In this document: one piece after another, positions 3,590 through 24,050 of the stretch
Position numbering within the stretch: position 1 is the stretch's first letter
How the letters are laid out: every line of letters begins with the position of its first letter
Assembly (NCBI GenBank): GCA_035553375.1
Contig: DATNCY010000159.1
Span: 34,653 to 66,652 of the forward strand
DNA: 32,000 nt
Reading direction: 5' to 3'
DNA from: Gemmataceae bacterium
GTDB lineage: Bacteria > Planctomycetota > Planctomycetia > Gemmatales > Gemmataceae
Position numbers and translations under genes: made by a program
The notes under the pieces: model-generated
What the model was told of the DNA's origin: nothing
Databases searched by the model: none
What the model saw: only the letters and a program-made list of their open reading frames with translations

Positions 3590-3634
3590 CCAAAATGTTC
3601 GTGCCCCTTAATCCTCAGCGGAGATTTACCGGCC

Positions 3635-5410: not shown

Positions 5411-5446
5411 TCCTACATCGCGTCGTAAGAGACACTAATTTTTTGA

Positions 5447-5497
5447 CCTGCTCGCAGCGCCAGCAAGGGAGTGTCCCTTGCTGGTGCTGCGGGCAGG
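5447..5497. repeat. REP-like palindromic element
   Basis: CCTGCTCGCAGCGCCAGCAAGGG (5447-5469), loop AGTGT, CCCTTGCTGGTGCTGCGGGCAGG (5475-5497). The A-to-T change at arm position 3 is mirrored on the partner arm. It begins 37 nt after the kinase stop. Confidence 0.9.
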
Positions 5498-5533
5498 CAA
5501 TTCATGGTGTTCGTGCCTCGAAGGAAACAGCCC

Positions 5534-8500
5534 ATGAAACGGCATGTCGTGTTGATCGCTTTGATCCTGGTTCTCGCGCGAACGGCGATCACGCCGGCCC
5601 AGCAGGAAATTAAAGACTTCTTTCAAGGGTTAGAGGACAAGGCTGACAGGATACGCAAGTGGGAGAGGGAGGAGCAACAGAAGATCGCCCAGGAAATGCG
5701 CGCGGAGAGCGAACGTCTGCGTCCTTTCTGGCTCATGCTGGAAGCCGAGCAACTGCAAGGAGAGAACCAGTTCCTGCCCGCGATCGAGCGGACGAAAGAG
5801 GCGGCTCGCAAGTACGAAGGCAAACGGGCCGAACAACTCACCTTCGCCGGAGCCGCTGCCTACCGCGAGATTTTGCTGCAACTCGGCCGGTTGTACGCCC
5901 TCATCGGAGAACAGGAGCAAGCACGCCAGGCGGCCTTGCAAGCCTGGAAAATCCACGAAGTGGTGATGGCTTCTTCGCGGCGTGGCCGCCGCGCGGATCA
6001 GCAAGACCGGATGCGAACCGCCCTTGCCGTGGCCCTGGTATTGGTTGCCGCCGACCAGCCCGACGAGGCCGCCGTGTTCGTCCATCGGGCTTTCGATGTG
6101 GGGCGACAAATGCCCGAACCGTTCAATCGGCCCGAACAAAATCCCTTCCTGGTGGAAGCGCTCCTTCTGAAAAGCATGTTGGCCAACAACGCCGGCAACT
6201 ATCCCGCGGCGCTGGTCGCCGGCAAGGAATTGGAGAGGTTGCTCCGCAGACAATATCCGTGCACAACGCATCCCGACGGCGATCCGAAATTGGCGGCGGG
6301 CCTGGCGAATCTGGCGTCGGCCCATGTTGCTTTGGGAGAATTTTTACCGGCCTTGTCCCTGTTAGACGAAGCCGACCGCATTCTCGGCCAACATGATCCC
6401 AAGGGCAAGCCGATTCGAGCCGAAGTGAAACGCATTCTGGGACATTTGTACTTACATCGGGGCGAAGACAAGCAAGCCCAGGACAATATCACGAAAGCGC
6501 GGTTGATGTATGAGGAGCTTTTTCCGGAAAAGTCTTATCCGCGCAGCCACCCTGCGCTGATTCAAGCACTCGCATCCCTGGCGGACTTGCTGAATCACTA
6601 CCATCATCGGGAAACTCTCGACTACGCGAAACTCGCCTGGCAACATTGCCAACGGCGTTATGCCCAACAATCGCACTCTCAAAAGGTCTCCGTTCTGCTC
6701 ACCTACGGCCGCTGCCTGCGCGATGCCGGCCAGCTGGAATCCGCCCGCCGGCGGTTCGCCGAAGCGGTGGACATGGCCAGCGTGCTTGGTGCCGCCAAAC
6801 CCACGGCCGGCGGCGATTCGCTGACAGCCTTGTGTCAGCTTCATCTTGGTAGTTTGCTGGGGCGTCAGGGGCGCTACGACGAGGCTCGCAAACTCTTTCA
6901 AAGCGCTCAGGCGACGTATCAAAAGTTTTTCCCCGATGGACATCCGCATTTGTTCGCGATCGCGGGGTATCAGGGGGTTCTTGCATCACGCCAAGGAGAT
7001 CGAGCGGGAGCGCGCGCGGCTTTCGCCCGCGCGCTCCAGTTGGATCAGAAACAACTCCGGCATTTCGCGCGCACCGTCGCCGAAGTGGAGGTGTTGAGTT
7101 TCACGCAGCCTCGACAACTTGTTTTGCACGGCTATCTGTCCGCCAGTCGCGGCGAGCCGGAACTTGACGAGCAGGCGTTTCGCTGGGTTTGGGCATCCAA
7201 GAACGCCGTGACACGGCTGGCGCAAGCCCGTCGGGCCGCCGTCCGTCTCGCCGGCGATAGGGGAAACCCCGAGGCCAAACGAATCCTGGCGGAGTTGGTC
7301 GATACATGTGCCCGTTTGCGTCAGGGACAAACCACGGTCCACGCCGGCACTTCGCTCCCGACTCTTGTGAAGGAGATGAATCGGCTAGAGTTGGAATTAA
7401 GTCAATTCTGGCCGGAGGCCGAACGGCTCCTCCATGAAGCGGAAAACGATCCCGGCGATCTGGCGGCGCATCTGCCTTCGGGTTCGGCATTCATCGATTT
7501 TGTCCGCTATACCGACCTCGCCGAAGGCCAAGCGTTTCAGCCGCGCTATGTGGCGTTCGTCGCGCTGCCCGGACGGAAGCCGCGCCGAATCGAATTGGAG
7601 TTAGCGCAGCCTATCGACGAGACGGTCAACGCCTGGCGCAAGTCCGTGGATGGGTGGAATCCCCGGATGCCCGACGCGGCGCGGCGGGACTACGAGCAGG
7701 AAAGCGAGACGCTGGCCGCGAAGTTGAGGCGGATTGTTTGGGAACGGATCGCCCCGGTGTTGCCGGCCGAAACGCGATTGCTTATTCTGGCGCCCGACGG
7801 CGATTTGGCCCGCTTCCCTTTCGCCGCGCTGCCGGGAGATCAGGCCCGGACGATTCTGCTTCAAAAATTCTCGATCGCCTACGTTCCGCACGGCCAATTC
7901 TTGTTGGCGCATCTGCATCAGGATAAAGCCCGCCCTCGCCAGTCCGATAGTTTCTTGGCCGTGGGAGGAGTGGCTTATGGCACACCGGGAGCCTTGCCGG
8001 ATCGCGCCTTCAAGGATCTCCCCGGTTCCTTGGGCGTGATCGAACTGGCCAAGCGGTGGCCCACGACGCAAACGACGCATATCCTGCGAGACCGGGAAGC
8101 TACGGTGAATAGGCTTCTTGGCAAGCTGCCGGAAGTCTCGGAAGCCCACCTCTCGACCCACGGTTTTTTTGACGAAAAAGCACTGAACGAGGAACGTGAA
8201 CAACAGACACGGATGATCCGCGATTGGACGCCGCGTTTGGAAACTCCGGTGGGATACATCGGTCTGGGGCACCGATTCCCGCTCAGCTTCGTCGGGCTTG
8301 TCCTCGCCGGAGCGAATGAGCCTAACACGGCCGACGGCGGCATCTTGACCGGAGAAACGCTTTCCCATCTCTCCTTGCCCCGATCTCGGTTGATAGTCCT
8401 TGACGCCTGCGAAACGGGACTGGGCAAATATACCGCCGGAGAAGGGGTGCAAGGACTGCAACGCGCCGTCCATCTGGTGGGTTGTCCGAACGTCATCGCT

Positions 8501-9019
8501 ACCTTGTGGCGCGTCAACGACGCCGCTTCGCAAGCTCTGGCGGAGGAATTTTATCGGCAACTATGGCAGAACAAGCTGCCGACGCTGGAAGCCTTGCGGC
8601 AAGCCCAACTCGCTCTCTACCGCGACCCCGGCCGCGTGTCGCAGAGCGGACAACGACGCGGCATACCACAACGGGAGCCGTTCCCAGACCCGGAAATTCG
8701 CCTGCCGAGCAGCATCCATCCGAACGATAGGAGCCATACGCAGATGTGGGGGGCCGCTTATGTCCACTCCGGTATGGGTGATCCGCTACTGGATCCGGCT
8801 GAACTGTCCGCGTTGGTTGGCCGTCTGGAAGAACAGGAAACGCCTGAGACCGCAACAGCTTCCTCGTTCGGAGTTCTGCCGGCATTGGCACTGGGCGGAC
8901 TGTTGACGTTGGCCGTCTTCGTTGTCATGCTCATTTGGCGGTTGTGGTGTAAACCGGCGGTAGTGGTTGCCGCGCCGAAGGAGCCTGAAGCGATTTCCGA
9001 CTCCGGTTCGGAACAATGA
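5534..9019 (+). CDS. TPR-repeat / CHAT-domain (caspase-like) protein with N-terminal signal peptide and C-terminal TM anchor
   Basis: The GTG at 5471 lies inside the REP. The ATG at 5534 follows AGGAAA and gives MKRHVVLIALILVLARTAITPAQQ, which is signal-like. A long helical TPR-like region follows, with repeated motifs such as LANLASAHVALGEFLPAL and LGHLYLHRGEDKQA. The CHAT core has the His motif EAHLSTHGFF (His codon 8159-8161) and the Cys motif LIVLDACETG (Cys codon 8408-8410), then GVQGLQRAVHLVGCPNVIATLWRVND. The C-terminal hydrophobic helix is LPALALGGLLTLAVFVVMLIW. Confidence 0.9.
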   Translation: MKRHVVLIALILVLARTAITPAQQEIKDFFQGLEDKADRIRKWEREEQQKIAQEMRAESERLRPFWLMLEAEQLQGENQFLPAIERTKEAARKYEGKRAEQLTFAGAAAYREILLQLGRLYALIGEQEQARQAALQAWKIHEVVMASSRRGRRADQQDRMRTALAVALVLVAADQPDEAAVFVHRAFDVGRQMPEPFNRPEQNPFLVEALLLKSMLANNAGNYPAALVAGKELERLLRRQYPCTTHPDGDPKLAAGLANLASAHVALGEFLPALSLLDEADRILGQHDPKGKPIRAEVKRILGHLYLHRGEDKQAQDNITKARLMYEELFPEKSYPRSHPALIQALASLADLLNHYHHRETLDYAKLAWQHCQRRYAQQSHSQKVSVLLTYGRCLRDAGQLESARRRFAEAVDMASVLGAAKPTAGGDSLTALCQLHLGSLLGRQGRYDEARKLFQSAQATYQKFFPDGHPHLFAIAGYQGVLASRQGDRAGARAAFARALQLDQKQLRHFARTVAEVEVLSFTQPRQLVLHGYLSASRGEPELDEQAFRWVWASKNAVTRLAQARRAAVRLAGDRGNPEAKRILAELVDTCARLRQGQTTVHAGTSLPTLVKEMNRLELELSQFWPEAERLLHEAENDPGDLAAHLPSGSAFIDFVRYTDLAEGQAFQPRYVAFVALPGRKPRRIELELAQPIDETVNAWRKSVDGWNPRMPDAARRDYEQESETLAAKLRRIVWERIAPVLPAETRLLILAPDGDLARFPFAALPGDQARTILLQKFSIAYVPHGQFLLAHLHQDKARPRQSDSFLAVGGVAYGTPGALPDRAFKDLPGSLGVIELAKRWPTTQTTHILRDREATVNRLLGKLPEVSEAHLSTHGFFDEKALNEEREQQTRMIRDWTPRLETPVGYIGLGHRFPLSFVGLVLAGANEPNTADGGILTGETLSHLSLPRSRLIVLDACETGLGKYTAGEGVQGLQRAVHLVGCPNVIATLWRVNDAASQALAEEFYRQLWQNKLPTLEALRQAQLALYRDPGRVSQSGQRRGIPQREPFPDPEIRLPSSIHPNDRSHTQMWGAAYVHSGMGDPLLDPAELSALVGRLEEQETPETATASSFGVLPALALGGLLTLAVFVVMLIWRLWCKPAVVVAAPKEPEAISDSGSEQ

Positions 9020-9052
9020 ACTCGCTTACTCCTCCGTTCGAGGAATCTTCCA

Positions 9053-11212
9053 ATGCCCATCTCCATCCGTTGTCCGAAATGCTCCATTATTCTCCGGGTG
9101 GCCGACACTTCGGTTGGCCAGAATGTGCGTTGTCCAAAGTGTCAGGCGGTGATCCATGTCGCCGCGCCCGCATCGCCGGTTCCGCCGGTCGCCATCCCGG
9201 TACGTCCGGCCACGCCTTCCATCCGGGCATCGCAGTCGGCACCTGCTCTATCTCGCCGACCTGCTCCCACTACCGTAGCCAGCGAATCCATCGTGAAGCC
9301 AGCCCGCGGTCGAGGACGACTCATCGGCCTGCTTTCCGCCGGCCTTGGCCTCATCGTGCTGCTTGGGGTTATGGTTTTGTGGTGGGCTGTCTCTCGGCGT
9401 CAGCCGCACGATGTTCGCGGCAATACCGAGAACCCGCAGGCAGCCGTTTCGCGCTCGGGAACGATACCGGAGACCATTCCGAGAGAGAACGCGAGGCCGA
9501 CCGAAAAACCGAAGTTTGAACAGGAGCCGAAGTCGGCGGAGAAGACGTCTGATCCGTCCGGCGGAGAATCGACCTCAACGATGCTGGAGCCGTTGCTGCC
9601 GGTGGAAGCGGCGGCCGACGATCCGCCCGGCGTCAGCGTCCCCCTGTTCTTCGCCCAGTTCCGTTCGCTGAGCAAGCTGCTTGGGGATGCCCAACTACTT
9701 GCCGTCGCTCTGGGCAAGAAACAGGAGCTTGACGACGGTTTGCTGAAAATGAAAAAATCCATCAGCACGGAAGGCATGCAGGGATTCGACGCAGGCAAAC
9801 CGTGGGGCGTCTATGCGCGTGTCCGCGATAAGGGCGACATCGGGACCGTCGTGCTTTTGCTGCCCGTCCGAAAAGAAAATTCGTTCCGCCGTCTGTTACA
9901 AGATCTTGGTTTCCAGGAACAGGCTTCTCGCGGAGACTTAATCTCGTACAAGTTCCCCGATCAGCCCTTGCTGCCGGTGATATTCCCGGTGAAACTCCCC
10001 GAACAATTTTACCTGCGCTTCGCCGGCGATTACGCGCACATTTGCCTCATGGGAGATCCGAATCTGCTGGTAGGCGATAAAATGCTACCGGCCGCATCCT
10101 TATTTGCTCCCGGCCGCGATAAGCTTCTATCCGCAACGCTGCGGATCGATCGGCTGCCCAAACCGTGGTGCGAAGCGTGGATGGCCAAGGCGAAGGAGGG
10201 GAAGGGATTGCTTCCCCAGGCCGATTCGGAGATCGTCCGCACCTATGGCGTCGCATTTGCTGAGAAATTGACTGAGTATGCGACCGACCTCGTGAAAGAA
10301 GGGAGAAACCTCACCTTCGAGATGGAATTGAACCGCAAGAGCGAGAGCATCGCGGTCGATCTGTATTTACAGGGTCAAAAAGGCTCTCGATTATCGGCAA
10401 ACCTCGCTGCTCTGAGTAAAACCCCCAGCCTGTTTGGTTCCCTGGCGCAACCGGATGCCGCCTTCCGTTTTCTGGTCAATGTCCGTTTGCCGTGGGAATT
10501 GCGGCAAATGTTGCCGGCTCTCGTCAACGAGGCGACCCGGCAAACGCTCCGCGATGCGACCGCTGAAGATCGCCGGAAACACGAACCCCTTTTCCGTACC
10601 CTGGGAGAAACCTTCGCGGCCGGCGAACTCGATGGCGTGGTGGTCGTGCGGAGTCGCGGCGAAGGGAAACCGGCATCAGTCGAGGGCGGTTTGAAAGTGC
10701 CCAATGGGGCAGCCCTCGATAAACTCTTCCGCGATCTGGTTGCCGAGCTTCCGGACAAGGCCGTTCGCGATCTGTTTGAGATGGAGGCCGAGGATTTCGG
10801 CGGCGTCAAAGCGCATCGCTTCCGTGCGCAACAGTATTTTACGGACACGCCGCGCAAAGTATTCGGAGACAACCCGTTCTACTACGCCTTTCGCTCGGAC
10901 GCGCTTTTCTATGCGGCGGGAGACAGGAGCAAGCAGACTCTTGCGGATGCTCTGCCGTCGCGGCCCAAGGAATCGCCTCTTGCTCTGCTGACGGTGAATC
11001 TTCGGCAACTCAACCAGTTGCTTCCCCTTCAGAGCGAGGATGCGCCGCTGCCACGCGAGCAGTTCACCAGGGCGCATCCGGGCCGCATCCGTTTGGAACT
11101 TGCCGGCGGTGATTCCTTGCGGTTCCATGTGGGCATCGAACTGGCCGTCCTGCGGTTTCTCATCACTCGATTGGATCAACTTCCTTTCCGGATCGAGACG
11201 AAGCCGCGCTAG
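9053..11212 (+). CDS. Zn-ribbon / single-TM protein with large extracytoplasmic domain of unknown function
   Basis: ATG at 9053 follows GAGGAA and lies 33 nt after the CHAT stop. The N-terminus is MPISIRCPKCSIILRV...VRCPKCQAVIHV, a CxxC...CxxC zinc ribbon. Then come a Pro-rich linker, a TM helix (LIGLLSAGLGLIVLLGVMVLWWAV) and ~590 aa with no recognised domain. Confidence 0.85.
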   Translation: MPISIRCPKCSIILRVADTSVGQNVRCPKCQAVIHVAAPASPVPPVAIPVRPATPSIRASQSAPALSRRPAPTTVASESIVKPARGRGRLIGLLSAGLGLIVLLGVMVLWWAVSRRQPHDVRGNTENPQAAVSRSGTIPETIPRENARPTEKPKFEQEPKSAEKTSDPSGGESTSTMLEPLLPVEAAADDPPGVSVPLFFAQFRSLSKLLGDAQLLAVALGKKQELDDGLLKMKKSISTEGMQGFDAGKPWGVYARVRDKGDIGTVVLLLPVRKENSFRRLLQDLGFQEQASRGDLISYKFPDQPLLPVIFPVKLPEQFYLRFAGDYAHICLMGDPNLLVGDKMLPAASLFAPGRDKLLSATLRIDRLPKPWCEAWMAKAKEGKGLLPQADSEIVRTYGVAFAEKLTEYATDLVKEGRNLTFEMELNRKSESIAVDLYLQGQKGSRLSANLAALSKTPSLFGSLAQPDAAFRFLVNVRLPWELRQMLPALVNEATRQTLRDATAEDRRKHEPLFRTLGETFAAGELDGVVVVRSRGEGKPASVEGGLKVPNGAALDKLFRDLVAELPDKAVRDLFEMEAEDFGGVKAHRFRAQQYFTDTPRKVFGDNPFYYAFRSDALFYAAGDRSKQTLADALPSRPKESPLALLTVNLRQLNQLLPLQSEDAPLPREQFTRAHPGRIRLELAGGDSLRFHVGIELAVLRFLITRLDQLPFRIETKPR

Positions 11213-11226: not shown

Positions 11227-11281
11227 CCAGCCCGCAGCACCAGCAAGGGAATGAATCACCCTTGCTGGCGCTGCGGGCTGG
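11227..11281. repeat. REP-like palindromic element between convergent genes
   Basis: CCAGCCCGCAGCACCAGCAAGGG (11227-11249), 9-nt loop, CCCTTGCTGGCGCTGCGGGCTGG (11259-11281), with one mismatch. It fills the 72-nt gap between two convergent stop codons. Confidence 0.9.
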
Positions 11282-11284: not shown

Positions 11285-12673
11285 TCATGGTTTTTTCAGC
11301 ACCGCTTGTAGGGCGGTTGTCATGGCCTTTTCCGCACCGGGCGCCACCCAACACCAATCGTTCAAATTCGTGTCGCCCTCCTCGAACGCCTTCTCGGTGG
11401 GAATGTAGCCGGGGGCGCATTCGCCGTAACCGGCGACAACGACAAAAGAGTCTGGCCGTAATCGCTGCGCGAGCAACTGATACTCGACGTAGGATTCTGC
11501 CGGCAACAGCAACAACTGCGCAATGCCGAAGTCGAGCAGCGGTACATCGATCTTGTGTCCCGCATCGGCGCGCTTGCGCCAACTCAATCCCAGCGCGGCC
11601 AGGCATTGACCGAACGGTTTCGGATCGTTCGTCAAACGCCGCGTCAGGTCGTCCTTGGTGAAACCACGACTGTTACGCGGTTCGAGGCGCAGCGGCACAC
11701 TGCGGAACGCGATCTGTTTCAGCGGATGGCGTTTGGTCGCTTTCCAGGCGGCAACCATGCCCTGATACATCCGCTCGGCGAGGATGGGGCGGTTCTCGGG
11801 CGCGCCGTCGTTGTACTTGCCGGCGGTGACGTTGCCGCTACATCCGGACAGGTAAATCTGCGCGACCCTGGGTTCGTCCGCGCCCCGACGCTTGCGCGCG
11901 AGGCCCATGAAATCGCTGGAAACCTCGCCCCGACCGTAGTAGCTCATGGGGTGGGTTGCATAGCAAGAGATGGCGAGCAGCGGACGGTCGCCGTCCCAGA
12001 AGCTGAGCGTTTTCAGCCAGGGATCAATGAGACCTTCCGGCTGTTTGCGAACCTCGGCGTCGCGCGTGGCGCTGGTACGGCCGAAGTGTGGCTTGCCATC
12101 CACGCCGAGGTAGCGACGATTCGAGGCGACTTTCTCGACTCGAGCTTGGCCGATGCCGAGATGAGTGAAACGCTGCGGCGTCTTCCGGGCCGCGCGGACG
12201 GCGCGGGCCACGGCTTGCACCGCGCGCTCGTGGAACGCCGGATCGCAAATGCTGGCCTTGGCCTTGTGAGCGCGCAAGATGCGCTCCGCCTCCAGGTCGG
12301 CCACCGGGGCATCGTGCTGATGAACACTGCTGACGAGGACGCGCTCCGGCACGGTATCGGCCGCTTCGGCGAGAACCGTGCGCCAGCGGTCGTAAGCGTC
12401 GTTGCGGATCTCGCACCAATCGACGGCGGCGAGTACGATAGGACGGCCCGCGCCCGCCAATACGAAACCGTGAACAAACAGCGGATCGTTGATTTTTCGC
12501 GCCGGCGCGATGCCGCCGCCCATGAGCGCGTGTCCGAGGGGAACCGTCACCTCGGCCGTGAAGGAGACGAGGTGGAATCCGGCGGGTGGGGCCGACCGTC
12601 CCTCAACGGCGAAACTGCCAAGACAGGCGGCCATGCCACCCAGGGCCGACCGGCGGCTGAGATGTTCGCTCAT
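11285..12673 (-). CDS. Tat-signal exported hypothetical hydrolase-like protein (possibly neutral-ceramidase-like; uncertain)
   Basis: ORF 11285..12808 on the minus strand. The ATG at 12673 follows GAGGA and yields MSEHLSRRSALGGMAACLGSFAV, which carries a twin-arginine motif. It is 462 aa. The functional family is only a weak impression from VTVPLGHALMGGG-type N-terminal motifs. Confidence 0.8.
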   Translation of the reverse strand: MSEHLSRRSALGGMAACLGSFAVEGRSAPPAGFHLVSFTAEVTVPLGHALMGGGIAPARKINDPLFVHGFVLAGAGRPIVLAAVDWCEIRNDAYDRWRTVLAEAADTVPERVLVSSVHQHDAPVADLEAERILRAHKAKASICDPAFHERAVQAVARAVRAARKTPQRFTHLGIGQARVEKVASNRRYLGVDGKPHFGRTSATRDAEVRKQPEGLIDPWLKTLSFWDGDRPLLAISCYATHPMSYYGRGEVSSDFMGLARKRRGADEPRVAQIYLSGCSGNVTAGKYNDGAPENRPILAERMYQGMVAAWKATKRHPLKQIAFRSVPLRLEPRNSRGFTKDDLTRRLTNDPKPFGQCLAALGLSWRKRADAGHKIDVPLLDFGIAQLLLLPAESYVEYQLLAQRLRPDSFVVVAGYGECAPGYIPTEKAFEEGDTNLNDWCWVAPGAEKAMTTALQAVLKKP

Positions 12674-12854
12674 GGTGGAAGTCCTCACGCAACGACAGCA
12701 ATCGTAATGCGGCACGACACCGGGCAACTTACCGAAAGAGAGACCGGCAAGCAAAGGGATTCTTGGAGACACTCGTGAGGCCGTGGGTGGCTGCGCTCGC
12801 TTTCTCACCGGGACGGCGGTAGGCTAAATATCTTCCTCCCCTATCACCGCCGCA

Positions 12855-14612
12855 GTGAGGAACGCCTTGAAAGGTCATTTATTCATCACACCGGGCGACC
12901 TTACGCAATTGAGCGCCCATGCCATCGCTTATTCGGCCAGCAACGCGCTGGGCCGCGACGGTAATCTGTATTCCGCTTTCGCGGCCAATGTGCCGGGTTT
13001 CGCCGAGTGGTACAACCAGCTACGTCCCGGCCAAGGGCAACTCCGCGAGGTCGGCGATGCTTTCTGGATGCCCTTGAAAACAGGCCAGATGCCGCGAGGC
13101 GTGGTCGCCGTCGTCTCGACGGGTGGGCCGGCCACCACCGAGGACAAGGCCGCCATCGCCGTGCGCGCGGCCCTCACTACGGCCGTCCGCGAACTGCGGA
13201 ACACACACGAAAAGCAGAAACATCTGCTCATTGCTTTACCCGCGTTCCGGTTGGGCAAAGGAGGCGATCGCCGACAGCGCTTGCGTTCGGCCCGCGCGCA
13301 GATCAGCGCCGCCCGCGATTTCCTCGCTCACAACGAGGGCGTCGATGTCGCCTTCATTCCGTACACGATCTCGCTCTACCAGATTTTTCTCGAAGCACGC
13401 CGCGAAGTACGCGACAAGCTTTCGTCCGATCCGCCGCGCTATTCCACCTTGGAACAGGCGTTGCTCGCGCGCGAATGCGTCCTGTTCGTCGGCGCCGGCC
13501 TCTCGTCTGGTGCTGGTTTGCCTGACTGGAACAGCCTGGTACAGCGATTAAGCGGCGATCTGGGCATCGAGTGGCAGGATCGACACAATTATCTCGATCT
13601 CGCCCAGTGGTATCGCGAACGCTTCGGTTCGGAGCGACTCGCCGCGGTCATCCGCGACACCTACACGACGACGGCGTATCCGACCCTCGCGCACTACCTG
13701 CTGATGTCGCTGCCGGTTCGCCATGTCATCACGACCAATTACGACGACCTGCTTGAACGCGCTCTGATCGGTCTCAAACGGCATCCCGTCAAGGTTCTGC
13801 ATCAGCAGGATGTGGCCCGCACCGGACAGGATGACGTTTTCGTCGTCAAACTGCACGGCGACGCGGCCCATCCCGATGAGGTCATCCTGACGCGCGACGA
13901 TTACGACGAGTTCTTTCATCGCCGACCGGCGATGGCGCTGCTGCTGGAGGGGTTGCTGCTCAATCAGACGTTCTTTTTCGTCGGCTACGGGCTGCGCGAT
14001 CCGAACTTCCGGCAGATTCAAAGCCGCATCGTGCGCATGCTGCGCGAGGCACAGCGGCCAGCCTTCGCCACGACCTTCGAGGCGTCCGGCGACAACGGTC
14101 CTTATCTCATCGAGCAATGGCGCAACAAGCAGCTGGCTCTTATCAATATCCCCGGCGCGACGCTGGCCGAGCAGCAACACGCATTTCTGCAATTCCTCGA
14201 CAATCTGGCCGATCTGGTAGCGCTCCAGATGCCGCAATTATTTCTCACGCCGGAATTGCAAGTCTCGCCCGAACTGAGGCATCTGCGCAAGCTGCTCCTT
14301 GAGGAAGTCGGAGCCGAGATGGAGACGTTCGCCGAGCGCGACCTATCCGGTTCGACGGCCTGGCAGGATGTACGCTATCTGGCTGAGGTGCTAGAGTTTT
14401 TGACCGCGCACGGTTGGCGACCGGGAACACGCAAGAGCCTTGACTTGTGCCGCTTGTGGGAGCAACTGGCGGCGCACGCGGCGGGGCCGGCCGAGCAGCG
14501 CCGATTGCTCATCGCCGCGCTCGGTGCCGCCGAGGCGTTTGCCGATGTTCAGCGCATTCGGAATAAACTCGCGGAATTGGAACGCCCGATGGAAGGACAG
14601 GCAAATCCTTGA
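12855..14612 (+). CDS. Macro-like domain + SIR2_2 (defence-type sirtuin-like) domain + helical C-terminal domain fusion protein
   Basis: The start is GTG at 12855, or TTG at 12867 which follows GTGAGGAA. Residues 1-185 align by eye to the macro fold: FITPGDLTQLSAHAIAYSASNAL, GVVAVVSTGGP, LLIALPAFRLGKGG, VDVAFIPY. Residues ~200-430 carry the SIR2_2 motifs CVLFVGAGLSSGAGLPDW, VITTNYDDLLE (Asn codon 13737-13739), VVKLHGD (His codon 13854-13856), ILTRDDYDEF and FFFVGYGLRDPNF. The last ~150 aa are helical. Confidence 0.85.
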   Translation: MRNALKGHLFITPGDLTQLSAHAIAYSASNALGRDGNLYSAFAANVPGFAEWYNQLRPGQGQLREVGDAFWMPLKTGQMPRGVVAVVSTGGPATTEDKAAIAVRAALTTAVRELRNTHEKQKHLLIALPAFRLGKGGDRRQRLRSARAQISAARDFLAHNEGVDVAFIPYTISLYQIFLEARREVRDKLSSDPPRYSTLEQALLARECVLFVGAGLSSGAGLPDWNSLVQRLSGDLGIEWQDRHNYLDLAQWYRERFGSERLAAVIRDTYTTTAYPTLAHYLLMSLPVRHVITTNYDDLLERALIGLKRHPVKVLHQQDVARTGQDDVFVVKLHGDAAHPDEVILTRDDYDEFFHRRPAMALLLEGLLLNQTFFFVGYGLRDPNFRQIQSRIVRMLREAQRPAFATTFEASGDNGPYLIEQWRNKQLALINIPGATLAEQQHAFLQFLDNLADLVALQMPQLFLTPELQVSPELRHLRKLLLEEVGAEMETFAERDLSGSTAWQDVRYLAEVLEFLTAHGWRPGTRKSLDLCRLWEQLAAHAAGPAEQRRLLIAALGAAEAFADVQRIRNKLAELERPMEGQANP

Positions 14613-14616
14613 CTTG

Positions 14617-14666
14617 CCAGCCGGCAGCGCCAGCAAGGGAAATCCCTTGCTGGCGCTGCCGGCTGG
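14617..14666. repeat. REP-like palindromic element (perfect 27-bp stem including flanks)
   Basis: CCAGCCGGCAGCGCCAGCAAGGG (14617-14639), loop AAAT, CCCTTGCTGGCGCTGCCGGCTGG (14644-14666). The flanking CTTG/CAAG extend the stem to 14613-14670. The C-to-G variant at arm position 7 is compensated on the partner arm. It starts 4 nt after the SIR2 gene stop. Confidence 0.92.
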
Positions 14667-14781
14667 CAAGACCGCCCGCGAGACGCCGATCCACGCCCTT
14701 GTTGCGCGAGGGGGTGGCTGTTAGACTCAAGCTTCATCCACACCCTCGCCTTATCTATGCCCAGTAGAGGATCCTCCCATC

Positions 14782-17700
14782 ATGGCATGGCCGCTCTCGC
14801 AGGATTACAACGAAGCGCTGCAAAACCCCCAAACCAGTTTTAGCGACCCCGAGTTGCGCCAGGGCCAAGTTGTTACCAACGTCCTCGGTATTCCGCAACC
14901 CTGCTCCGGCAACTTCGCCGATGTCTATGCCGTCGAGTGTGAGGCCAGCAAAACCAAGTGGGCCGTCAAGTGTTTCACTCGGGAGGTCCACGGCCTGCGC
15001 GAACGCTACAGCGAAATCAGCAAGTATTTGCAGCAGGTTCGCTTGCCGTTCACCGTCGATTTTCAGTACCTCGAACAGGGCATTCGCATCGCCGGCCGTT
15101 GGTATCCCATCCTCAAAATGCACTGGGTCGAGGGCTTCACCCTCAATGCCTTCGTTCGCGACATGCTCGACAAGCCGGCCATGCTCGATGCGCTAGGGCA
15201 AATCTGGCTGCGCATGGGCCGGCGTTTGCGTGAGGCGAATCTAGGCCATTGCGATTTGCAACATGGCAATGTTTTGCTGGTGCCCGGCAGCACGGCGCAA
15301 TCGCTGGCCGTCAAGCTGATCGATTACGATGGCATGTGGGTTCCCGCGTTGGCCAAGACGCCATCGGGCGAAGTCGGCCACCCCGCCTATCAGCACCCTC
15401 AACGCTTGCGCGACGGTACTTACAACGCCGAGGTGGATCGCTTTCCTCTGCTGGTCATCGCCACGGCGCTACGCTGTCTGCGCGTCGGCGGCCGGGCGCT
15501 GTGGGAGCGCTACGATACCGGCGATAATATGCTGTTTCGTGAGGTGGACCTACGTGCGCCGGCGGAATCGGCGCTGTTTGCCGAACTACGGCAGATCAAC
15601 GATCCGCTTGCCCGTTCGCTGGTGGAGCAGCTAGTGCAGGCCAGCCAAAAGCCACTCGACCAAACGCCGCTTTTACAAGAGTTGTTCCCCGACGAGAAGC
15701 CGGCCGTGTCCGCGGGGACGCGCGGCAAACCGCAGGCGGCGCGGACCACTGCGGCGGTGACAACCGAGCCGAACGCCTTCCAAGATATTGAAACGACAAG
15801 CACGGGGAAGCGTTCACGCCGCAAAACGAATAGCGCCAAAAGAACCTCTGTCGTCCCGTGGATCGTGGGCGGCGTCGTGGCGGCCTGCATCCTTATCGGA
15901 AGCGGATTGTTCTGGGTGCTGCACTCCAAGAGTGCGCGCGACAAGACTCTTCCCACACCAGACCTCCGGCAAGCGCAAGCGCTCCGCGGCGAACTGGTGA
16001 AAAAGCCCGAAGACAACCTCCCACCGCAACCTGTCGAGAGACCGACGGACAAGAATCCCGAGAACAAGCGTCCCAAGCCGGCGATGGTTCAACTCCTTGA
16101 TGGTCCTCCCGGCGAAGTGCGGCGTTTCGAGGGACACGCGGGCGATGTGATCGACGTTGCCTTCTCGGGTGACGGTAAACGCGCTCTCACGGCCAGCGCG
16201 GACAAGTCGGTGCGCTTGTGGGATGTCGCCAGCGGCGAGACGATCCACATCCTGAATGGCCATACGCAAATGGTCTGGAGCGTCGCCTTTTCTCCCGACG
16301 GCAAACGCGCCGTCTCGGCCGGCTATGACAGCACGGTTCGCGTGTGGGATCTGGACAAAGGCGAGCAACTCCGCGCCATCACCGGCTATCCGGGGGCTGT
16401 TCGCCGAGCCGTGTTCACAGCGGATGGCCGGCAGGTCATCGCGGCGGGGATGGGCAAAAGCGTCCGCCGGTGCGACGCCATGACGGGGGCGGAAGTCAGC
16501 CAGTATGCGGGGAGCCAGGCCGATAACTATTGCTTGGCGTTGGCTCCCAAAGGCGATGTCGTTTTGGCCGGCGAAGGCGATAACATCGTTCATTGCTGGA
16601 ACGTCGCCGATGGACGTGAACTGGATCCCTACAAGGGCAGTATCAGCCATGTGTATGCCCTCGACTGCTCGCATGACGGCCAATTGATCGCGGCGGCTGG
16701 CGGCGATCCGGTTGTACGCATCTGGCGTGCCTCGGATCGCACGTTGCTGCACAGTCTGGCGGGACATAGTGCGCAGGTGAACGCGGTTCGTTTCACGCCG
16801 GATGGCCGGTTGCTGTCGGCCAGCCACGATCAGACGGTTCGCCTGTGGGACATGGCGACGGGACGCGAATTGGCGCGTTTTTACGGACCTGAAGGGTGCA
16901 AAATGCTGAGCGTGGCCGTTTCGCCGGACGGCCGCCATTTCCTATCGGGCGGCTCGGATAAGATGATGCGACTGTGGCGTTTGCCACCTGCGGATGTTTT
17001 GGCGAGCAAACCCGATGATCCTGCCAAGCAGATTCAACCATTCGAGGGACACACGGCCGAGATCAACGGCGTGACCTTCGCGCCCGATGGCCGGCTCGCC
17101 CTGTCCGGCAGTAGCGACGGGATCGTGCGCCTGTGGGATCTGCCGGCCGGCAAAGAAGTGAGACAGTTGACCGGCCACCAGGACAAGGTTCAGAGCGTGG
17201 CCTTCTCGCCGGATGGCCGTTTGGCCCTCACCGGGGCCTTGGATAAGACGGCTCGCATTTGGGATGTGGGCGAGGGGCGAGAATTGTTTTGCTTCCGCGG
17301 GCATAACGACTGGGTCCGCAGCGTCGCCTTTTCGCCGGACGGCAAGCGAGCGCTGACGGCCAGCGGTGGTCCAGGCAACGTGGACTGCACCGTTCGATTG
17401 TGGGATGTTGCCGATGGGAAAGAAATCCAGACCTTGCGCGGCCACAACAAGCCGGTCACGGCCGCCGTCTTTTCTCCGGACGGCCGCCGGGCCATCTCCG
17501 GCAGCGATGATGGAACCGTCCGGCTATGGGATCTGGCCGACGGTCGCGAAGTGCGGAAATACACGGGGCATCTAGGGTTCGTCTATGGTATCGCTGTATC
17601 CGGCGATGGCCGGCTCGCCGCCTCGGTGGGCGATGACAAGACGGTGCGACTCTGGGATCTGCAAGGCGAGAAGGAACTACTTCGCCTGGATGGACACACC

Positions 17701-19362
17701 GATCTGACCATGTGCGCCGCCTTCTCTCCTGACAGTCGCCGCATCCTCTCCGGCAGTCTGGACAAGACGTTGCGACTCTGGGATACGGCGACCGGGCGCG
17801 AATTGGCGTCTTTCAAGGAAAGTCAGGCGGGCGTGAAATGCGTGGCCTTTTCTCCAGACGGTCGCCATGCCTTGTCGGGAGGGCTGGACAAATTAATGCG
17901 ACTGTGGCGATTGCCCTTCGCTCCGCTGATGTTCGGCCGACCAGTCGAAATCAAGACGGAGCCGGCTCCGCCCCCGCCTCCAGTTGCGGCGAAGCTGCCC
18001 GTGCCGGACAAGGATGCTCAGAAGAAGTGGACCGATGACATCCGCGAGAAATATAAGCTCTCCTACGCCTCCAAGGATTCGGCCGACCTCGCCGCCCTTG
18101 CCGATAAGCTGTTTGCCCACGGAATGAAAAAGACTGAGCAATCGGAGGGGCGTTACATTTATCTTGTCGAAGCCTCCGACGTGGCGGCCAAGGCCGCCGA
18201 TCCGGTTCTGAGTCTGCGTGCCGTGGATGAGTTGGGCAAACTCTTCGTCATTGCGGAACTGCCGATGAAGGCCGTCGCGCTCCAGACGGCGGTAAAGGCG
18301 GCGAAGACGCTCAGCGCGAACAAGGCCATTCTCGAATCGGCCCTCCCCCTGCTCGCCGAGGCGATTGAGACAGACGATTACGACGCCGGCGAACGTCTTG
18401 CCAAGACAGCCGAAGCGGCAGGTTATCAGACCCGCGACTCCACCAGGAGAATTCTCTTTCTCGCCAACGAGGTGAAGCGCTTGAAGCGCTTGAAGCCGAA
18501 ATACCCGGCCGTCAAACTGGCTCTCGAAACGCTCGTGAAGGAGCCGAACGATCCCAGGGCGAACGGCATCGTGGGAAGTTTTCGCTGCTTCGACAAAGGC
18601 GACTGGGCGCGAGGATTGCCCCTACTCGCTCTGGGCGATGACGCCAAAATCAAAACCCTTGCCGAGCAAGACTTGGCCGCGCCGCAGACAGCCGACGCGC
18701 GGGCGGCTGTGGGCGATGGCTGGTGGAACCTCGCTCAACCAAGGGCGAAGGGAGCGGTGAAAGCGAACATCCAGCAGCGAGCCTGTTACTGGTATGTGCT
18801 TGCGCTGGCGGATGCAGCGGAGAAAAACCGCGTCCGCTTGGAGAAACGCATTCGGGGATATAATAATGATTATCCAACCGCGGCGTGGGAACACCTGGAC
18901 ATCTCTCAGGCGACCGTGACGCTCGGAGCCTTGCGGCTGGACAAGAAGGCCAAGCAAATCATCACGCGCGAGTCCTATTCGGGGCCGATCGAAGTCACGG
19001 TACTCACCAGCACCGAGAAGAATAATATCCGTCTTTATGGCGGCAAAGGGGCTTATGTAATCTTCAACCACGAAAGCGAGCCGGGAGGGTTGGAGTTGGG
19101 GCGGCCCGATGGCGAGCAGCCATATACAGGCAGCAAGGTCCGCAGCCGATTGCAACCGCCCCTTCGCCCGAAAACCTGGTATCTCTTGAGTTGGCGTATC
19201 TCCGAGGAAGGCATGAGCGCCGGAGTCAATGGGCGCGTGGCCTACTCCGAGGACCACAAGAATAACTTGTCAGGGAAATATCCAATTCACCTCCAGACGT
19301 TTGACTCCGATATTGAAATACTGTCCTTCACGGTTCGGCCCCTCAAGAAGAAATCGAACTGA
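14782..19362 (+). CDS. Atypical protein-kinase-fold domain / TM helix / 14 WD40 repeats (two 7-blade propellers) / large C-terminal domain protein
   Basis: ATG at 14782. The N-terminal kinase-like motifs are GNFADVYAV, KWAVKCF, GHCDLQHGNVLLV and KLIDYDGMW. The TM helix VVPWIVGGVVAACILIGSGLFWVL lies at about nt 15850-15925. Fourteen blades end in VRLWDV-type motifs across about nt 16110-17925. The ~480-aa C-terminal region includes GDWARGLPLLALGDD. Confidence 0.9.
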   Translation: MAWPLSQDYNEALQNPQTSFSDPELRQGQVVTNVLGIPQPCSGNFADVYAVECEASKTKWAVKCFTREVHGLRERYSEISKYLQQVRLPFTVDFQYLEQGIRIAGRWYPILKMHWVEGFTLNAFVRDMLDKPAMLDALGQIWLRMGRRLREANLGHCDLQHGNVLLVPGSTAQSLAVKLIDYDGMWVPALAKTPSGEVGHPAYQHPQRLRDGTYNAEVDRFPLLVIATALRCLRVGGRALWERYDTGDNMLFREVDLRAPAESALFAELRQINDPLARSLVEQLVQASQKPLDQTPLLQELFPDEKPAVSAGTRGKPQAARTTAAVTTEPNAFQDIETTSTGKRSRRKTNSAKRTSVVPWIVGGVVAACILIGSGLFWVLHSKSARDKTLPTPDLRQAQALRGELVKKPEDNLPPQPVERPTDKNPENKRPKPAMVQLLDGPPGEVRRFEGHAGDVIDVAFSGDGKRALTASADKSVRLWDVASGETIHILNGHTQMVWSVAFSPDGKRAVSAGYDSTVRVWDLDKGEQLRAITGYPGAVRRAVFTADGRQVIAAGMGKSVRRCDAMTGAEVSQYAGSQADNYCLALAPKGDVVLAGEGDNIVHCWNVADGRELDPYKGSISHVYALDCSHDGQLIAAAGGDPVVRIWRASDRTLLHSLAGHSAQVNAVRFTPDGRLLSASHDQTVRLWDMATGRELARFYGPEGCKMLSVAVSPDGRHFLSGGSDKMMRLWRLPPADVLASKPDDPAKQIQPFEGHTAEINGVTFAPDGRLALSGSSDGIVRLWDLPAGKEVRQLTGHQDKVQSVAFSPDGRLALTGALDKTARIWDVGEGRELFCFRGHNDWVRSVAFSPDGKRALTASGGPGNVDCTVRLWDVADGKEIQTLRGHNKPVTAAVFSPDGRRAISGSDDGTVRLWDLADGREVRKYTGHLGFVYGIAVSGDGRLAASVGDDKTVRLWDLQGEKELLRLDGHTDLTMCAAFSPDSRRILSGSLDKTLRLWDTATGRELASFKESQAGVKCVAFSPDGRHALSGGLDKLMRLWRLPFAPLMFGRPVEIKTEPAPPPPPVAAKLPVPDKDAQKKWTDDIREKYKLSYASKDSADLAALADKLFAHGMKKTEQSEGRYIYLVEASDVAAKAADPVLSLRAVDELGKLFVIAELPMKAVALQTAVKAAKTLSANKAILESALPLLAEAIETDDYDAGERLAKTAEAAGYQTRDSTRRILFLANEVKRLKRLKPKYPAVKLALETLVKEPNDPRANGIVGSFRCFDKGDWARGLPLLALGDDAKIKTLAEQDLAAPQTADARAAVGDGWWNLAQPRAKGAVKANIQQRACYWYVLALADAAEKNRVRLEKRIRGYNNDYPTAAWEHLDISQATVTLGALRLDKKAKQIITRESYSGPIEVTVLTSTEKNNIRLYGGKGAYVIFNHESEPGGLELGRPDGEQPYTGSKVRSRLQPPLRPKTWYLLSWRISEEGMSAGVNGRVAYSEDHKNNLSGKYPIHLQTFDSDIEILSFTVRPLKKKSN

Positions 19363-19721: not shown

Positions 19722-19730
19722 GTGGATGAG

Positions 19731-20783
19731 CTACAATTCGAGATGCTTTCGCGCATACACCAGGCTCTTGCGCACGTTCTCTTCCTCCATGGCGAGTTGT
19801 TCCTTCTGGCTGCGACCGCTGATATGCGGCAGCGCTTGCTTGTGCTTGCGAACCAGCGCCAGCGTGCGGGCGAGAGTGCGGCCGGATACATTCGCGGCAG
19901 TCGCCCAGTATTTGTCGCTCAAACAAGGCACACGCAGCGGATCGCGGGTGATCATCTCCAGGTTGAAGCGGATGTCCGGCCGCGCTTCGCGGAGGAGGCG
20001 AACCATCTTCGGCAGATCGAGGAAGCCCTCGCCTAGCGGCACTTCCGCCAGCAGGAACCCATCCTCATATTCGGCGACGGCCATATCTTTCAGATGCACC
20101 GTGAAGGCGCGCGGAGCAAGTTGCCGTACCACTTCCAGTGGGTCTTCCAGCAGCGCGATGCTGTTGCCGGTATCGACGCATACACCGACATTCCGGCTGT
20201 CCAGACGCTTGAGCAGAGCGAGCAGTTCGCCGGTGCGATAATCCTTGTGATTTTCGATCGCCAACAGCATGTCGTGCTTGGCGACAACCGGCTCGGCCAG
20301 CTTCACCGACTTTTCGGCGCGATCCGCCGCAGCACGAAAATCTTCAATACTGGTGAATTGCTCGTAGCGGCGTCCGCCCATCAGCACGGTGCGCAGAACC
20401 TTTGCCCCGGCATCGCGGGCAGCTCGCGTCTCCGCCGTGAAGCGATCGAGGTCCATGCGATCCTTCGGCAGACGGATCGTGCCTTCCAGGTCCATGCCAT
20501 TGTCTTCGACCTTCTTGCGGAGCTTAGCGAGGTAGTCCTTGTCGCGCAGGCCGATGGCGGTTTGTACGCCGCCAGCCCCTAGCTCGCGACAATGTTCGAC
20601 GAACGCCAGGGGATCGTTGAAGCCGGTTTTGCCGGCGGCGCGGTCGGCCGCTAACCGCAGGGCATAGGAATACTGCACCACGCCCAGACGCTTGCGCTTG
20701 TCCTCGTCGGCCGCGCCGGCCAAGGCTTGCGCGAATGGCAGCGCCGCGGCGGCCGCGAGAAATTGTCGTCGATTACCGATCAT
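19731..20783 (-). CDS. Tat-signal sugar phosphate isomerase/epimerase (xylose isomerase-like TIM barrel)
   Basis: The ATG at 20783 gives MIGNRRQFLAAAAALPFAQALAGA, which carries a Tat motif, and avoids overlap with the upstream stop at 20788. The body shows TIM-barrel family features (LAIENH, GVCVDTGNS). Confidence 0.85.
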   Translation of the reverse strand: MIGNRRQFLAAAAALPFAQALAGAADEDKRKRLGVVQYSYALRLAADRAAGKTGFNDPLAFVEHCRELGAGGVQTAIGLRDKDYLAKLRKKVEDNGMDLEGTIRLPKDRMDLDRFTAETRAARDAGAKVLRTVLMGGRRYEQFTSIEDFRAAADRAEKSVKLAEPVVAKHDMLLAIENHKDYRTGELLALLKRLDSRNVGVCVDTGNSIALLEDPLEVVRQLAPRAFTVHLKDMAVAEYEDGFLLAEVPLGEGFLDLPKMVRLLREARPDIRFNLEMITRDPLRVPCLSDKYWATAANVSGRTLARTLALVRKHKQALPHISGRSQKEQLAMEEENVRKSLVYARKHLEL

Positions 20784-22615: not shown

Positions 22616-23374
22616 ATGACTCCTCGCACCATCCGCACCTTCGCCGACGCCGAATCGCTGGGCGAGGCGGCCGCACACGAGTTCGTTCGCTGCGCCTGTG
22701 AAGCCGTCGCCGCGCGCGGTCGCTTCGCCGTGGCACTGTCGGGCGGTTCGACGCCGCGCCGTCTCTATCAGCTGTTGGCCGCTGAGCCGTTACGCGCTCA
22801 GGTGGATTGGAGCCGCGTTGAAATCTTCTGGGGCGATGAACGCTGTGTGCCGCCTGAGGATCCCGAATCGAATTATCGCATGGCAAGCGAGGCCATGCTG
22901 GCGCAGCTGCCCATTCCGGCGGAACACATTCATCGCCTGGAGGCAGAGCGCGCGGCGCGCGATTACGAAGCCACCATCGCCCGCGTGTTCGGCGAGACGG
23001 TTGGTGGCGAGCCGCCGGCCTTCGATCTGATTCTGCTGGGCATGGGGCCGGACGGTCACACGGCCTCGCTCTTTCCGCATACGGATGCGTTGCGCGAGAC
23101 GACGCGCTGGGTGGTCGCCAACCACGTTCCGCAGCTAAACACCAATCGCCTGACGTTGACACGGCCGATTCTCAACCGTGCCCGCGAAGTGCTGTTTCTC
23201 GTGGCCGGTGCCGACAAGGCCGAGCGATTGGTCGAGGTGCTTCTCGGTCCTGCCGATCCGCTGCGCCTGCCCTCGCAGTCGATCCAACCGGCCGGGCAAC
23301 TCGTCTGGTTCATCGATCGCGCCGCGGCCGACCGCCTGCCGCCGTCCCTCCTCCGAGAAAATATGCAAGGATAA
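22616..23374 (+). CDS. pgl: 6-phosphogluconolactonase
   Basis: ATG at 22616 lies 8 nt after GGAGG. Motifs seen are FAVALSGGSTPRRLYQLLA, WSRVEIFWGDERCVPPEDPESNY and FDLILLGMGPDGHTASLFP. Confidence 0.9.
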   Translation: MTPRTIRTFADAESLGEAAAHEFVRCACEAVAARGRFAVALSGGSTPRRLYQLLAAEPLRAQVDWSRVEIFWGDERCVPPEDPESNYRMASEAMLAQLPIPAEHIHRLEAERAARDYEATIARVFGETVGGEPPAFDLILLGMGPDGHTASLFPHTDALRETTRWVVANHVPQLNTNRLTLTRPILNRAREVLFLVAGADKAERLVEVLLGPADPLRLPSQSIQPAGQLVWFIDRAAADRLPPSLLRENMQG

Positions 23375-23378
23375 ACGT

Positions 23379-24050
23379 ATGAACGCTCCCGCGATCAAAC
23401 TGGCTCCGTCCATCCTCGCCGCCGACTTCACCCGGCTGGGCGAGCAGGTTCGTGAGGCCGACCAAGCCGGTGCCGACCGTATCCACGTCGATGTCATGGA
23501 TGGCCATTTCGTGCCGAATATCAGCATGGGGCCGTTTATTGTCAAGGCGATACGGCCGGTGACACGCCTGCCATTGGAAGTCCATCTGATGATCGAAGAG
23601 CCGATGCGCTATCTCGATGCCTTCGCCGAAGCCGGTGCCGATTCGTTGCTGGTGCATGTCGAGAACGCGGCCAATTTGCATCGCACCGTGCAGCACATCA
23701 AGGCGCTGGGGAAGAAAGCCGGCGTCGTACTCAACCCCGCCACCTCGCCGGTCGCCATCGCCGAGATTCTGCCCGATGTCGATCTCATCCTGGTGATGAC
23801 GGTCAACCCCGGCTTCGGCGGGCAAAAATTCATTCACAACACGCTCGGCAAGATTCGCCGTTTGCGTCAGATGATCGACCATGCCAAGCTGGATATTGAG
23901 TTGGAAGTGGATGGCGGCATCGACGCGGCGACAACGCCGTTGGTAGCGGAGGCGGGGGCGCGTGTGTTGGTGGCCGGCTCGGCGATCTTCGGCGCGGCGG
24001 AGGGGGTGGAGGCTGCCATGAACAAAATGCGTGCCGTCCTACCAACATGA
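23379..24050 (+). CDS. rpe: Ribulose-phosphate 3-epimerase
   Basis: An internal ATG at 23379 of ORF 23178..24050 gives [24 protein letters not shown]...[17 protein letters not shown]...[13 protein letters not shown]...VDGGI, the classic Rpe motifs. It starts 4 nt after the pgl stop. Confidence 0.92.

Follow-up and report, generated by a model that had tools for sequence, protein, structure and literature searches.

A conserved bacterial protein family that joins a divergent macro domain to a ThsA-type SIR2_2 domain

We analyzed a 32,000-nt stretch of a Gemmataceae bacterium genome (NCBI GenBank assembly GCA_035553375.1, contig DATNCY010000159.1, positions 34,653 to 66,652 of the forward strand; hereafter, the window) and report that one of its genes, here called Macro-SIR2, encodes a divergent macro domain, a SIR2_2 (SIRim) domain of the ThsA type and a C-terminal helical domain in a single polypeptide. 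SIR2_2 enzymes that degrade nicotinamide adenine dinucleotide (NAD+ glycohydrolases or NADases) are effectors in several phage-defence systems. The protein represents a conserved bacterial family in which, judging from exhaustive profile searches, this macro subtype is tied to SIR2_2. We tentatively interpret it as an NADase that acts alone and is controlled by a ligand of the ADP-ribose (ADPR) type.

Results

Gene and domain architecture

An initial annotation, made from the letters of the window alone, had described a single open reading frame (ORF) carrying macro-like and SIR2_2-type motifs. This ORF was present as noted, with a GTG start at 12855, a length of 585 aa and a stop codon at 14610-14612, and each of the quoted motifs could be located in its translation: GDLTQLSAHAIAYSASNAL, VVSTGGP, IALPAFRLGKGG, VDVAFIPY, GAGLS, TTNYD (N295) and KLHGD (H334). 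Among 5.8 billion proteins searched, more than 120 were full-length homologues with 51-83% identity, mostly from Gemmataceae metagenome-assembled genomes (MAGs) or soil metagenomes, by which we judge the ORF to be a genuine gene and no chance reading frame. An alignment of 68 homologues was conserved from end to end, with a mean column identity of 57%. Translation probably begins at TTG 12867 rather than at GTG 12855, giving a protein of 581 aa, because the JGI gene call P0001, 100% identical to the window protein, starts at this codon, because the reading from there (M-K-G-H-L-F) agrees with the MxGHLF N-terminus common to homologues and because a GAGGA lies 5 nt upstream. The sigma70-like promoter that had been proposed ahead of the gene did not hold up, as a scanner found no promoter meeting its criteria anywhere in 12500-15000.

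The central domain gave the clearest assignment. Pfam SIR2_2 (PF13289) matched aa 290-421 (E 1.2e-30, 106.9 bits against a cut-off of 24.5), and the best PADLOC model was ThsA1 (E 1.3e-51, aa 199-406), aligned over model positions 13-222 of 478, that is, the SIR2 half only. The closest solved structures by sequence were SeThsA 7UXT (2e-33), BcThsA (6LHX) and EcThsA, followed by DSR2 and KomC, and a Foldseek search with the full-length AlphaFold2 (AF2) model likewise retrieved ThsA (1.5e-16), DSR2 and KomC. In HMMER alignments to 7uxt and 6lhx, N295 (codon 13737-13739) and H334 (codon 13854-13856) fall on BcThsA N112 and H152, while the GAGLS loop contributes G213, G215 and S217. For deep conservation, we used a set of 70 diverse members reaching down to ~25% identity. 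Here, G213, G215, S217, N295, D297, K332, H334, G335 and F375-G377-D382 were at least 90% conserved; the motif residues reached at least 94%, and the N112/H152 equivalents and the GAGxS loop reached 96-99%.

Other sirtuin classes were considered and rejected. The domain contains one Cys only (C208) and no Cys4 zinc module, and the NCBIfam deacylase models CobB and PRK00481 scored 11-18 bits against cut-offs of 221-395. Dsr2 and Dsr1 reached 61.6 and 17.8 bits, respectively, against cut-offs of 1400, with the match limited to the SIR2 part. No SirTM chain appeared among PDB sequence matches at E<=10, by single sequence or by profile. With models below their cut-offs, no SirTM match and no Cys tetrad, identities as DSR1/DSR2, SirTM or CobB were discarded. 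On the combined sequence matches, the central domain is a ThsA-type SIR2_2 domain with intact catalytic motifs and a predicted NADase; Pfam, the PADLOC ThsA1 model, PDB sequences and Foldseek agree here with the SIR2_2-type domain, GAGxS loop, Asn295 and His334 recognized initially.

Upstream of this domain, the N-terminal region modeled alone gave a predicted local distance difference test (pLDDT) score of 90.8. Its top Foldseek matches were YmdB (E 1.5e-9, TM score 0.68/0.75), TTHA0132, macroH2A1.1, OiMacroD and MacroD2, with E values of 1.5e-9 to 4e-8 and TM scores of ~0.7, and the SirTM-linked macro protein SauMacro was also among the matches. When a family profile of the N-terminal 192 residues was compared to all PDB sequences, the significant matches were macro domains only, led by E. 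coli YmdB (2e-4, end to end) and Af1521 (6e-4), with PARP14 macro and macroH2A1.1 weaker. Several homologues are annotated by JGI as O-acetyl-ADP-ribose deacetylase. Pfam Macro (PF01661) remained silent at E<=1 for the window protein and for 25 N-terminal family members, and no PADLOC model matched the N-terminal region at E<=1. According to the structural model, the N-terminal region is a divergent macro fold; the macro assignment initially made by eye is thus supported by Foldseek and the family profile, with Pfam Macro giving no signal.

Comparison to YmdB provided information about the putative ligand pocket. In the family profile-PDB alignment, Asp15 of the GD motif aligns with the adenine-binding YmdB Asp11, and G134 and G136 fall in the loop aligned with the YmdB ISTG loop. 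In the same alignment, the window protein has Ser29 and Leu38 where YmdB has its catalytic residues, Asn25 and Asp35. Macro residues conserved to at least 90% in the 70-member set comprised G14, D15, G134, G136, D164 and R182, and Tyr170 was invariant among the closer homologues in the alignment. With the putative adenine-binding Asp and glycine-rich phosphate loop kept and the catalytic Asn/Asp pair of MacroD lost, the residue pattern suggests an ADP-ribose-type binder instead of a hydrolase, in line with the ligand-binding role that had been proposed from the diverged pocket.

The full-length AF2 model (pLDDT 90.9; predicted TM score (pTM) 0.93) shows the tail as a helical bundle, as had been expected, and its pTM indicates a predicted fixed arrangement between the domains. 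A profile of the C-terminal domain produced no significant PDB or Pfam match and, in particular, no SLOG match; hits to SUKH-3 and Hfq_1 were dismissed as noise (E at least 0.01). The domain contains an H-G-W-R-P motif (G520, W521 and P523) and shows the lowest conservation within the protein, with only L464 and G520 reaching at least 90%. From the residues conserved to this level across the 70 members, the macro pocket and the SIR2 active site appear to be under long-term constraint, and the tail appears to evolve fastest. Domain boundaries are given in Table 1.

Table 1 Features of the Macro-SIR2 locus in window coordinates
Feature	Position	Strand	Basis
Macro-SIR2_2-helical gene	12855..14612 (likelier start 12867)	+	ORF list, homologues, JGI call P0001
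Divergent macro domain, aa ~8-190	12876..13424	+	AF2, Foldseek, family profile vs PDB
ThsA-type SIR2_2 (SIRim) predicted NAD-binding/NADase domain, aa ~199-460	13449..14234	+	Pfam, PADLOC, PDB, Foldseek
C-terminal helical domain, aa ~472-576	14268..14582	+	Full-length AF2 model
REP-like perfect palindrome	14613..14670	.	Inverted-repeat search

Linkage of the two domains and distribution of the family

We searched 1.84 billion representative proteins exhaustively with the macro profile in HMMER at a threshold of E<=1e-3. This yielded 146 matches, including fragments and three false positives (P0263, P0267 and P0278) that were excluded as Ig-like, GEVED or beta-propeller repeat proteins. Nearly all matches were proteins of 510-730 aa with an N-terminal macro domain, or fragments of such proteins, and SIR2_2 was present in all 17 genuine long matches scanned. 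A word-based search with the same profile returned only fragments of the Macro-SIR2 family. The only 'macro-only' protein examined, of 181 aa, turned out in two assemblies to be encoded immediately upstream of a SIR2_2 gene, which makes it a split version of the fusion. As SIR2_2 accompanied the macro domain in 17/17 long matches and in this split form, the macro subtype is, as far as these searches extend, obligately linked to SIR2_2, either fused or as a directly adjacent gene. At the split loci (L249 4001-5754 and L250 3400-5153), the SIR2_2 gene follows at once or overlaps; the arrangement may be a frameshift, a pseudogene or a genuine two-gene version.

One variant carries a further domain. 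P0187 (949 aa) keeps the macro-SIR2_2-helical order and has a complete ADP-ribosylglycohydrolase (ARH) domain appended (PF03747, 2.5e-53). Its gene (locus L085, 260-3109) adjoins a PDDEXK_5 nuclease gene and a phage-type integrase gene, and this extended form represents a single cluster among the 146 matches.

Full-length members showed 53-84% identity in Gemmataceae/Gemmatales MAGs, ~47% in other Planctomycetota, 42-48% in Polyangiales/Myxococcales and 40-42% in Armatimonadota. A 597-aa member is encoded in the complete genome of a cultured planctomycete, Ca. Uabimicrobium amorphum (L025 9584-11377, and L026). Its macro domain contains an insertion and reads AD at the GD motif; next to the gene, in divergent orientation, lies a 1306-aa kinase-TPR gene. 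Viral contigs contained SIR2-only relatives and no full-length member.

Relation to known systems

The closest SIR2 relative of Macro-SIR2 is type I Thoeris ThsA (SIR2-SLOG; BcThsA 6LHX/8BTO and SeThsA 7UXT), which has the same catalytic Asn/His pair and Rossmann loop and presumably shares the logic of a nucleotide-sensing domain that gates an NADase. In type I ThsA, however, a SLOG domain that binds gcADPR is located at the C-terminus, whereas Macro-SIR2 lacks SLOG, carries its sensor-like macro domain at the N-terminus, has an extra C-terminal helical domain and is not adjacent to a TIR (ThsB) gene. The SIR2 domain of ThsA is activated by ligand-induced assembly.

Type II Thoeris ThsA, in which a transmembrane (TM) domain is combined with a macro domain, resembles Macro-SIR2 in using a hydrolase-inactive macro domain as the ligand-binding module of an effector; that domain binds ADPR, IAD or His-ADPR and then oligomerises (PMC11204291; bioRxiv 10.64898/2025.12.03.692087). 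The outputs differ, being a membrane-disrupting TM domain in type II ThsA and a predicted SIR2 NADase in Macro-SIR2, for which no TIR gene lies nearby. In the AF2 models, the macro fold of Macro-SIR2 starts at ~residue 8 and leaves no room for N-terminal TM helices. Without SLOG, a TM domain or an adjacent TIR gene, Macro-SIR2 was rejected as a ThsA of either type.

The combination itself has been described in eukaryotes. SIRim clade C, reported from 83 species by Bonhomme et al., contains SIRim fused to Macro in one polypeptide and branches with ThsA-like bacterial sirims (bioRxiv 10.1101/2024.09.18.613514). Compared by published description only, clade C and Macro-SIR2 have the same domain pair and a SIR2 domain that groups with ThsA-like prokaryotic sirims, clade C being eukaryotic. 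In addition, a published tree of SIR2_2 sirtuins carries 'Macro' as an extra-domain label on some members (PMC12700824). Our literature search found no paper characterising a bacterial Macro-SIR2 protein and none using 'Macro-SIR2' or 'SIR2-Macro'. Given the clade C fusions and the labeled tree, the architecture is less unfamiliar than had initially been suggested. The Macro-SIR2 fusion thus has precedent in eukaryotes, and the bacterial family is conserved and uncharacterised.

Two further groups of systems invite comparison. SirTM-macro operons, reportedly described by Rack et al. in 2015, and DarT-DarG also combine an enzyme that consumes NAD with a macro domain. Their macro domains are active erasers on separate proteins, whereas that of Macro-SIR2 is fused and has lost the catalytic residues, and SirTM is a different sirtuin class that was not detected in Macro-SIR2. 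DSR1/DSR2, SIR2-HerA, SPARSA and KomC (Kongming) share the SIR2_2 core and are single-protein or nucleotide-activated NAD depleters. Macro-SIR2 lacks their sensor or partner modules, with no HerA, pAgo or KomA/B nearby. DSR1 and DSR2 span ~1000-1250 aa and include a large sensor region at the C-terminus.

Genomic context

We looked for partner genes in the window and around homologues. Neither the window (Pfam and PADLOC) nor 11 Pfam-annotated homologue neighbourhoods, inspected up to +/-10 kb, contained TIR, SLOG, HerA or Argonaute, which extends to the homologues the absence of such partners pointed out for the window initially. All-against-all clustering of neighbour ORFs from 29 loci revealed no conserved partner gene; synteny was confined to subclades and involved ExbB-ExbD-ExbD, a methyltransferase, a GT2 gene and a Lactamase_B-like gene.

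In the window, genes of signalling or conflict type line the upstream side on the + strand (3485-11212) and encode a Ser/Thr kinase of 641 aa, a TPR-CHAT (caspase-like) protein of 1182 aa and a zinc-ribbon protein of 719 aa. Directly downstream, a gene at 14782-19362 (+) encodes a 1526-aa kinase-WD40 protein, whose N-terminal 305 aa match the PADLOC model 'STK_OB' at 1.3e-77 and are followed by at least 11 WD40 repeats. None of the neighbouring genes of the window was found beside homologues, even at those with 81-84% identity. Given this lack of synteny, the TPR-CHAT, kinase and kinase-WD40 genes were rejected as partners. An enrichment of WD40 neighbours was also rejected (7 of 33 Macro-SIR2 loci, 554 kb, versus 4 of 20 control planctomycete loci, 183 kb), and the kinase counts, five at the 33 loci versus none at the 20 controls, are too small for meaning. 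A few distant members lie beside integrases or insertion sequence (IS) elements, a PDDEXK nuclease or STAND NTPases.

The gene is followed by a palindrome, and the perfect REP hairpin reported initially was recovered here as a member of a recurring family of intergenic palindromes. The inverted repeat starts one base after the stop codon and has 28-nt arms with 100% complementarity and a 2-nt loop; possible roles are to end the transcript or to stabilise it. Its REP-like core, GCC[C/G]GCAGCGCCAGCAAGGG, matched 10 times in the window versus 0 expected by chance, at palindromic, intergenic sites (1838-1919, 5450-5494, 11230-11278 and 14620-14663) and as a single copy at 3567-3586. In spurious ORFs, the element translates as LAGAAG, PAGSASKG and similar motifs.

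Additional features of the window were recorded in passing. The divergent upstream gene (11285-12808, -) encodes 507 aa with a twin-arginine-like signal (SRRSALGG...) and has no Pfam or PADLOC match. The only flank similarity between the window and locus L001 of an 81%-identical homologue was between 19722-19896 and L001 14415-14590, ~55 aa at 71-76% identity at the C-terminal end of a xylose-isomerase-like TIM-barrel gene. At 22616-24050 (+), the 6-phosphogluconolactonase and ribulose-phosphate 3-epimerase ORFs share ~200 nt; the true start of the epimerase is probably further downstream, as its Pfam match begins at residue 74.

Discussion

The domain identities, the conservation of catalytic and pocket residues, the obligate linkage and the fact that no partner gene is conserved are the observations from which we infer NADase activity, the identity of the ligand, the direction of regulation and the biological role of Macro-SIR2. 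We lean toward a stand-alone NADase gated by an ADP-ribose-type ligand, a tentative reading that we place somewhat short of an even chance. Macro-SIR2 would then be a cytoplasmic three-domain enzyme, a ligand-gated NAD+ glycohydrolase whose SIR2_2 module cleaves NAD+ to ADP-ribose and nicotinamide. The macro domain would bind an ADP-ribose-containing small molecule, which might come as a signal from elsewhere in the cell, as an ADP-ribosyl product derived from infection or as the ADPR released by the enzyme itself. Binding would control SIR2 activity via allostery or oligomerisation, with the macro domain taking the role of SLOG in type I ThsA or of the macro domain in type II ThsA, and the helical domain at the C-terminus would serve in assembly or receive a second input. 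We would expect NAD+ to be depleted and growth to stop, whether in abortive infection or in response to stress.

By analogy, the best-supported reading of the architecture is a recombination of a type I Thoeris effector with a type II Thoeris-like sensor. A more specific proposal, which we consider doubtful in its entirety, is a single-protein switch for NAD depletion, in which recognition of an ADP-ribose-derived molecule by the hydrolase-dead macro domain gates the ThsA-type SIR2 domain by assembly, and in which the family is the bacterial counterpart, and possibly the source, of eukaryotic clade C. The molecule could be a TIR signal from elsewhere in the genome, the product of a phage ADP-ribosyltransferase or the protein's own ADPR acting in cooperative feedback.

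Several observations weigh against a ligand-gated NADase with a role in defence. Neither the window nor the 11 homologue contexts contain a signal-producing partner gene, and no PADLOC model matches the window protein over its full length. The C-terminal domain is the most variable part, which fits a sensor located there instead of in the macro domain, and ADP-ribosyl processing accounts for the ARH-fused variant no less well than signal sensing does. Most homologue contexts resemble housekeeping regions, with Cpn10/RRF/PyrH, DprA, EF-G/HisA, ExbBD, major facilitator superfamily (MFS) transporters and glycosyltransferases. The gene has a GC content of 0.61-0.64, matching that of its flanks. 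In one Gemmataceae subclade, it follows ExbB-ExbD-ExbD and has diverged to a similar degree (60-62% versus 58-64%), which indicates, at the sequence level, co-inheritance with ExbBD; GC and divergence of this kind are not usual for a gene of a defence island. Housekeeping-like neighbours, flank-like GC and divergence in step with ExbBD together leave the originally suggested defence function without backing from context.

The association with ExbBD has its own bounds. Among related metagenome contigs with a similar ExbD2 and at least 700 bp of downstream sequence, none of 33 carried the gene after ExbD2; one contig too short for this criterion did. The genes downstream of ExbD2 differ between contigs, and a clean insertion/deletion comparison failed. 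The overall picture is of a stand-alone accessory gene that is stably kept in some lineages, patchy across phyla and devoid of a classical defence-island signature.

An alternative arrangement would place the trigger at the other end of the protein. The C-terminal domain could sense a protein, for example a phage structural protein, in a DSR2-like manner, and the macro domain, instead of sensing an external signal, could handle a metabolite such as the product ADPR, with feedback, auto-inhibition or assembly as its purpose. The tail resembles typical target-recognition modules in being the least conserved region and in having no known relatives; Foldseek strongly matches the SIR2 domain to that of DSR2, and the gene is solitary, without a signal generator in its vicinity. 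ADPR is, moreover, the enzyme's own expected product, and the EcThsA macro domain aggregates with ADPR (PMC11204291). The domain is, however, only ~105 aa long, far below the sensor regions of DSR1/DSR2, its GW(R)P motif is invariant even in distant members, pointing to a structural or assembly role, and no phage partner or trigger is known. We regard this arrangement as unlikely.

Macro-SIR2 might instead write ADP-ribosylation marks with a built-in reader or eraser, following SirTM-macro or DarT-DarG logic, such that the SIR2 domain would modify a protein, a nucleic acid or itself and the macro domain, in P0187 together with ARH, would read or remove the modification. Such a function would explain why P0187 appends a complete ADP-ribosylglycohydrolase domain, ARH and macro domains being classical erasers, and it accords with the obligate linkage of macro and SIR2, the JGI name 'O-acetyl-ADP-ribose deacetylase' on several homologues and the SirTM-linked SauMacro among the structural matches. 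The SIR2 domain is nevertheless of the SIR2_2/ThsA type, with no SirTM among PDB sequence matches at E<=10, and its characterised close relatives ThsA, DSR2 and KomC are NADases. The macro domain lacks the MacroD catalytic Asn and Asp, and the ARH variant is a single cluster of the 146 matches. On balance, a writer with its own eraser seems improbable.

Least probable, and in our view very unlikely, is a housekeeping NAD or sirtuin role, either as a deacylase-type sirtuin whose macro domain binds or deacetylates O-acetyl-ADP-ribose (OAADPr) or as a regulated NAD-turnover enzyme unrelated to conflict: the ordinary chromosomal neighbours in most contexts, the flank-like GC, the co-inheritance with ExbBD (60-62% versus 58-64%) and the best macro match, YmdB, an OAADPr deacetylase, speak for it, but the domain has one Cys and no Cys4 zinc module, the CobB/deacylase models of NCBIfam fall well short of their cut-offs, the catalytic residues of YmdB are missing, the family is spread patchily over Gemmataceae MAGs, other Planctomycetota, Polyangiales, Armatimonadota and Uabimicrobium, the gene is absent after ExbD2 in 33/33 informative related contigs and some distant members lie beside integrases, a PDDEXK nuclease or STAND NTPases.

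The interpretation offered at the outset was sound in its folds, SIR2 motifs, pocket divergence, missing partner and hairpin, overstated the unfamiliarity and found no support in the promoter scan or the genomic context.

The Macro-SIR2 family joins SIR2_2 and macro domains in one protein without an adjacent signal generator. If the macro domain gates the NADase, this would constitute a new sensor-effector pairing and a simple single-gene system for finding the ADP-ribose-derived molecule that is sensed. Eukaryotic Macro-SIRim proteins, themselves uncharacterised, may also find a bacterial model in this family; macro gating or a link to the eukaryotic clade, if demonstrated, would raise its interest. 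Should Macro-SIR2 be a stably inherited, non-defence regulator of NAD in large-genome soil bacteria, it would advise caution against reading every SIR2_2 protein as immunity.

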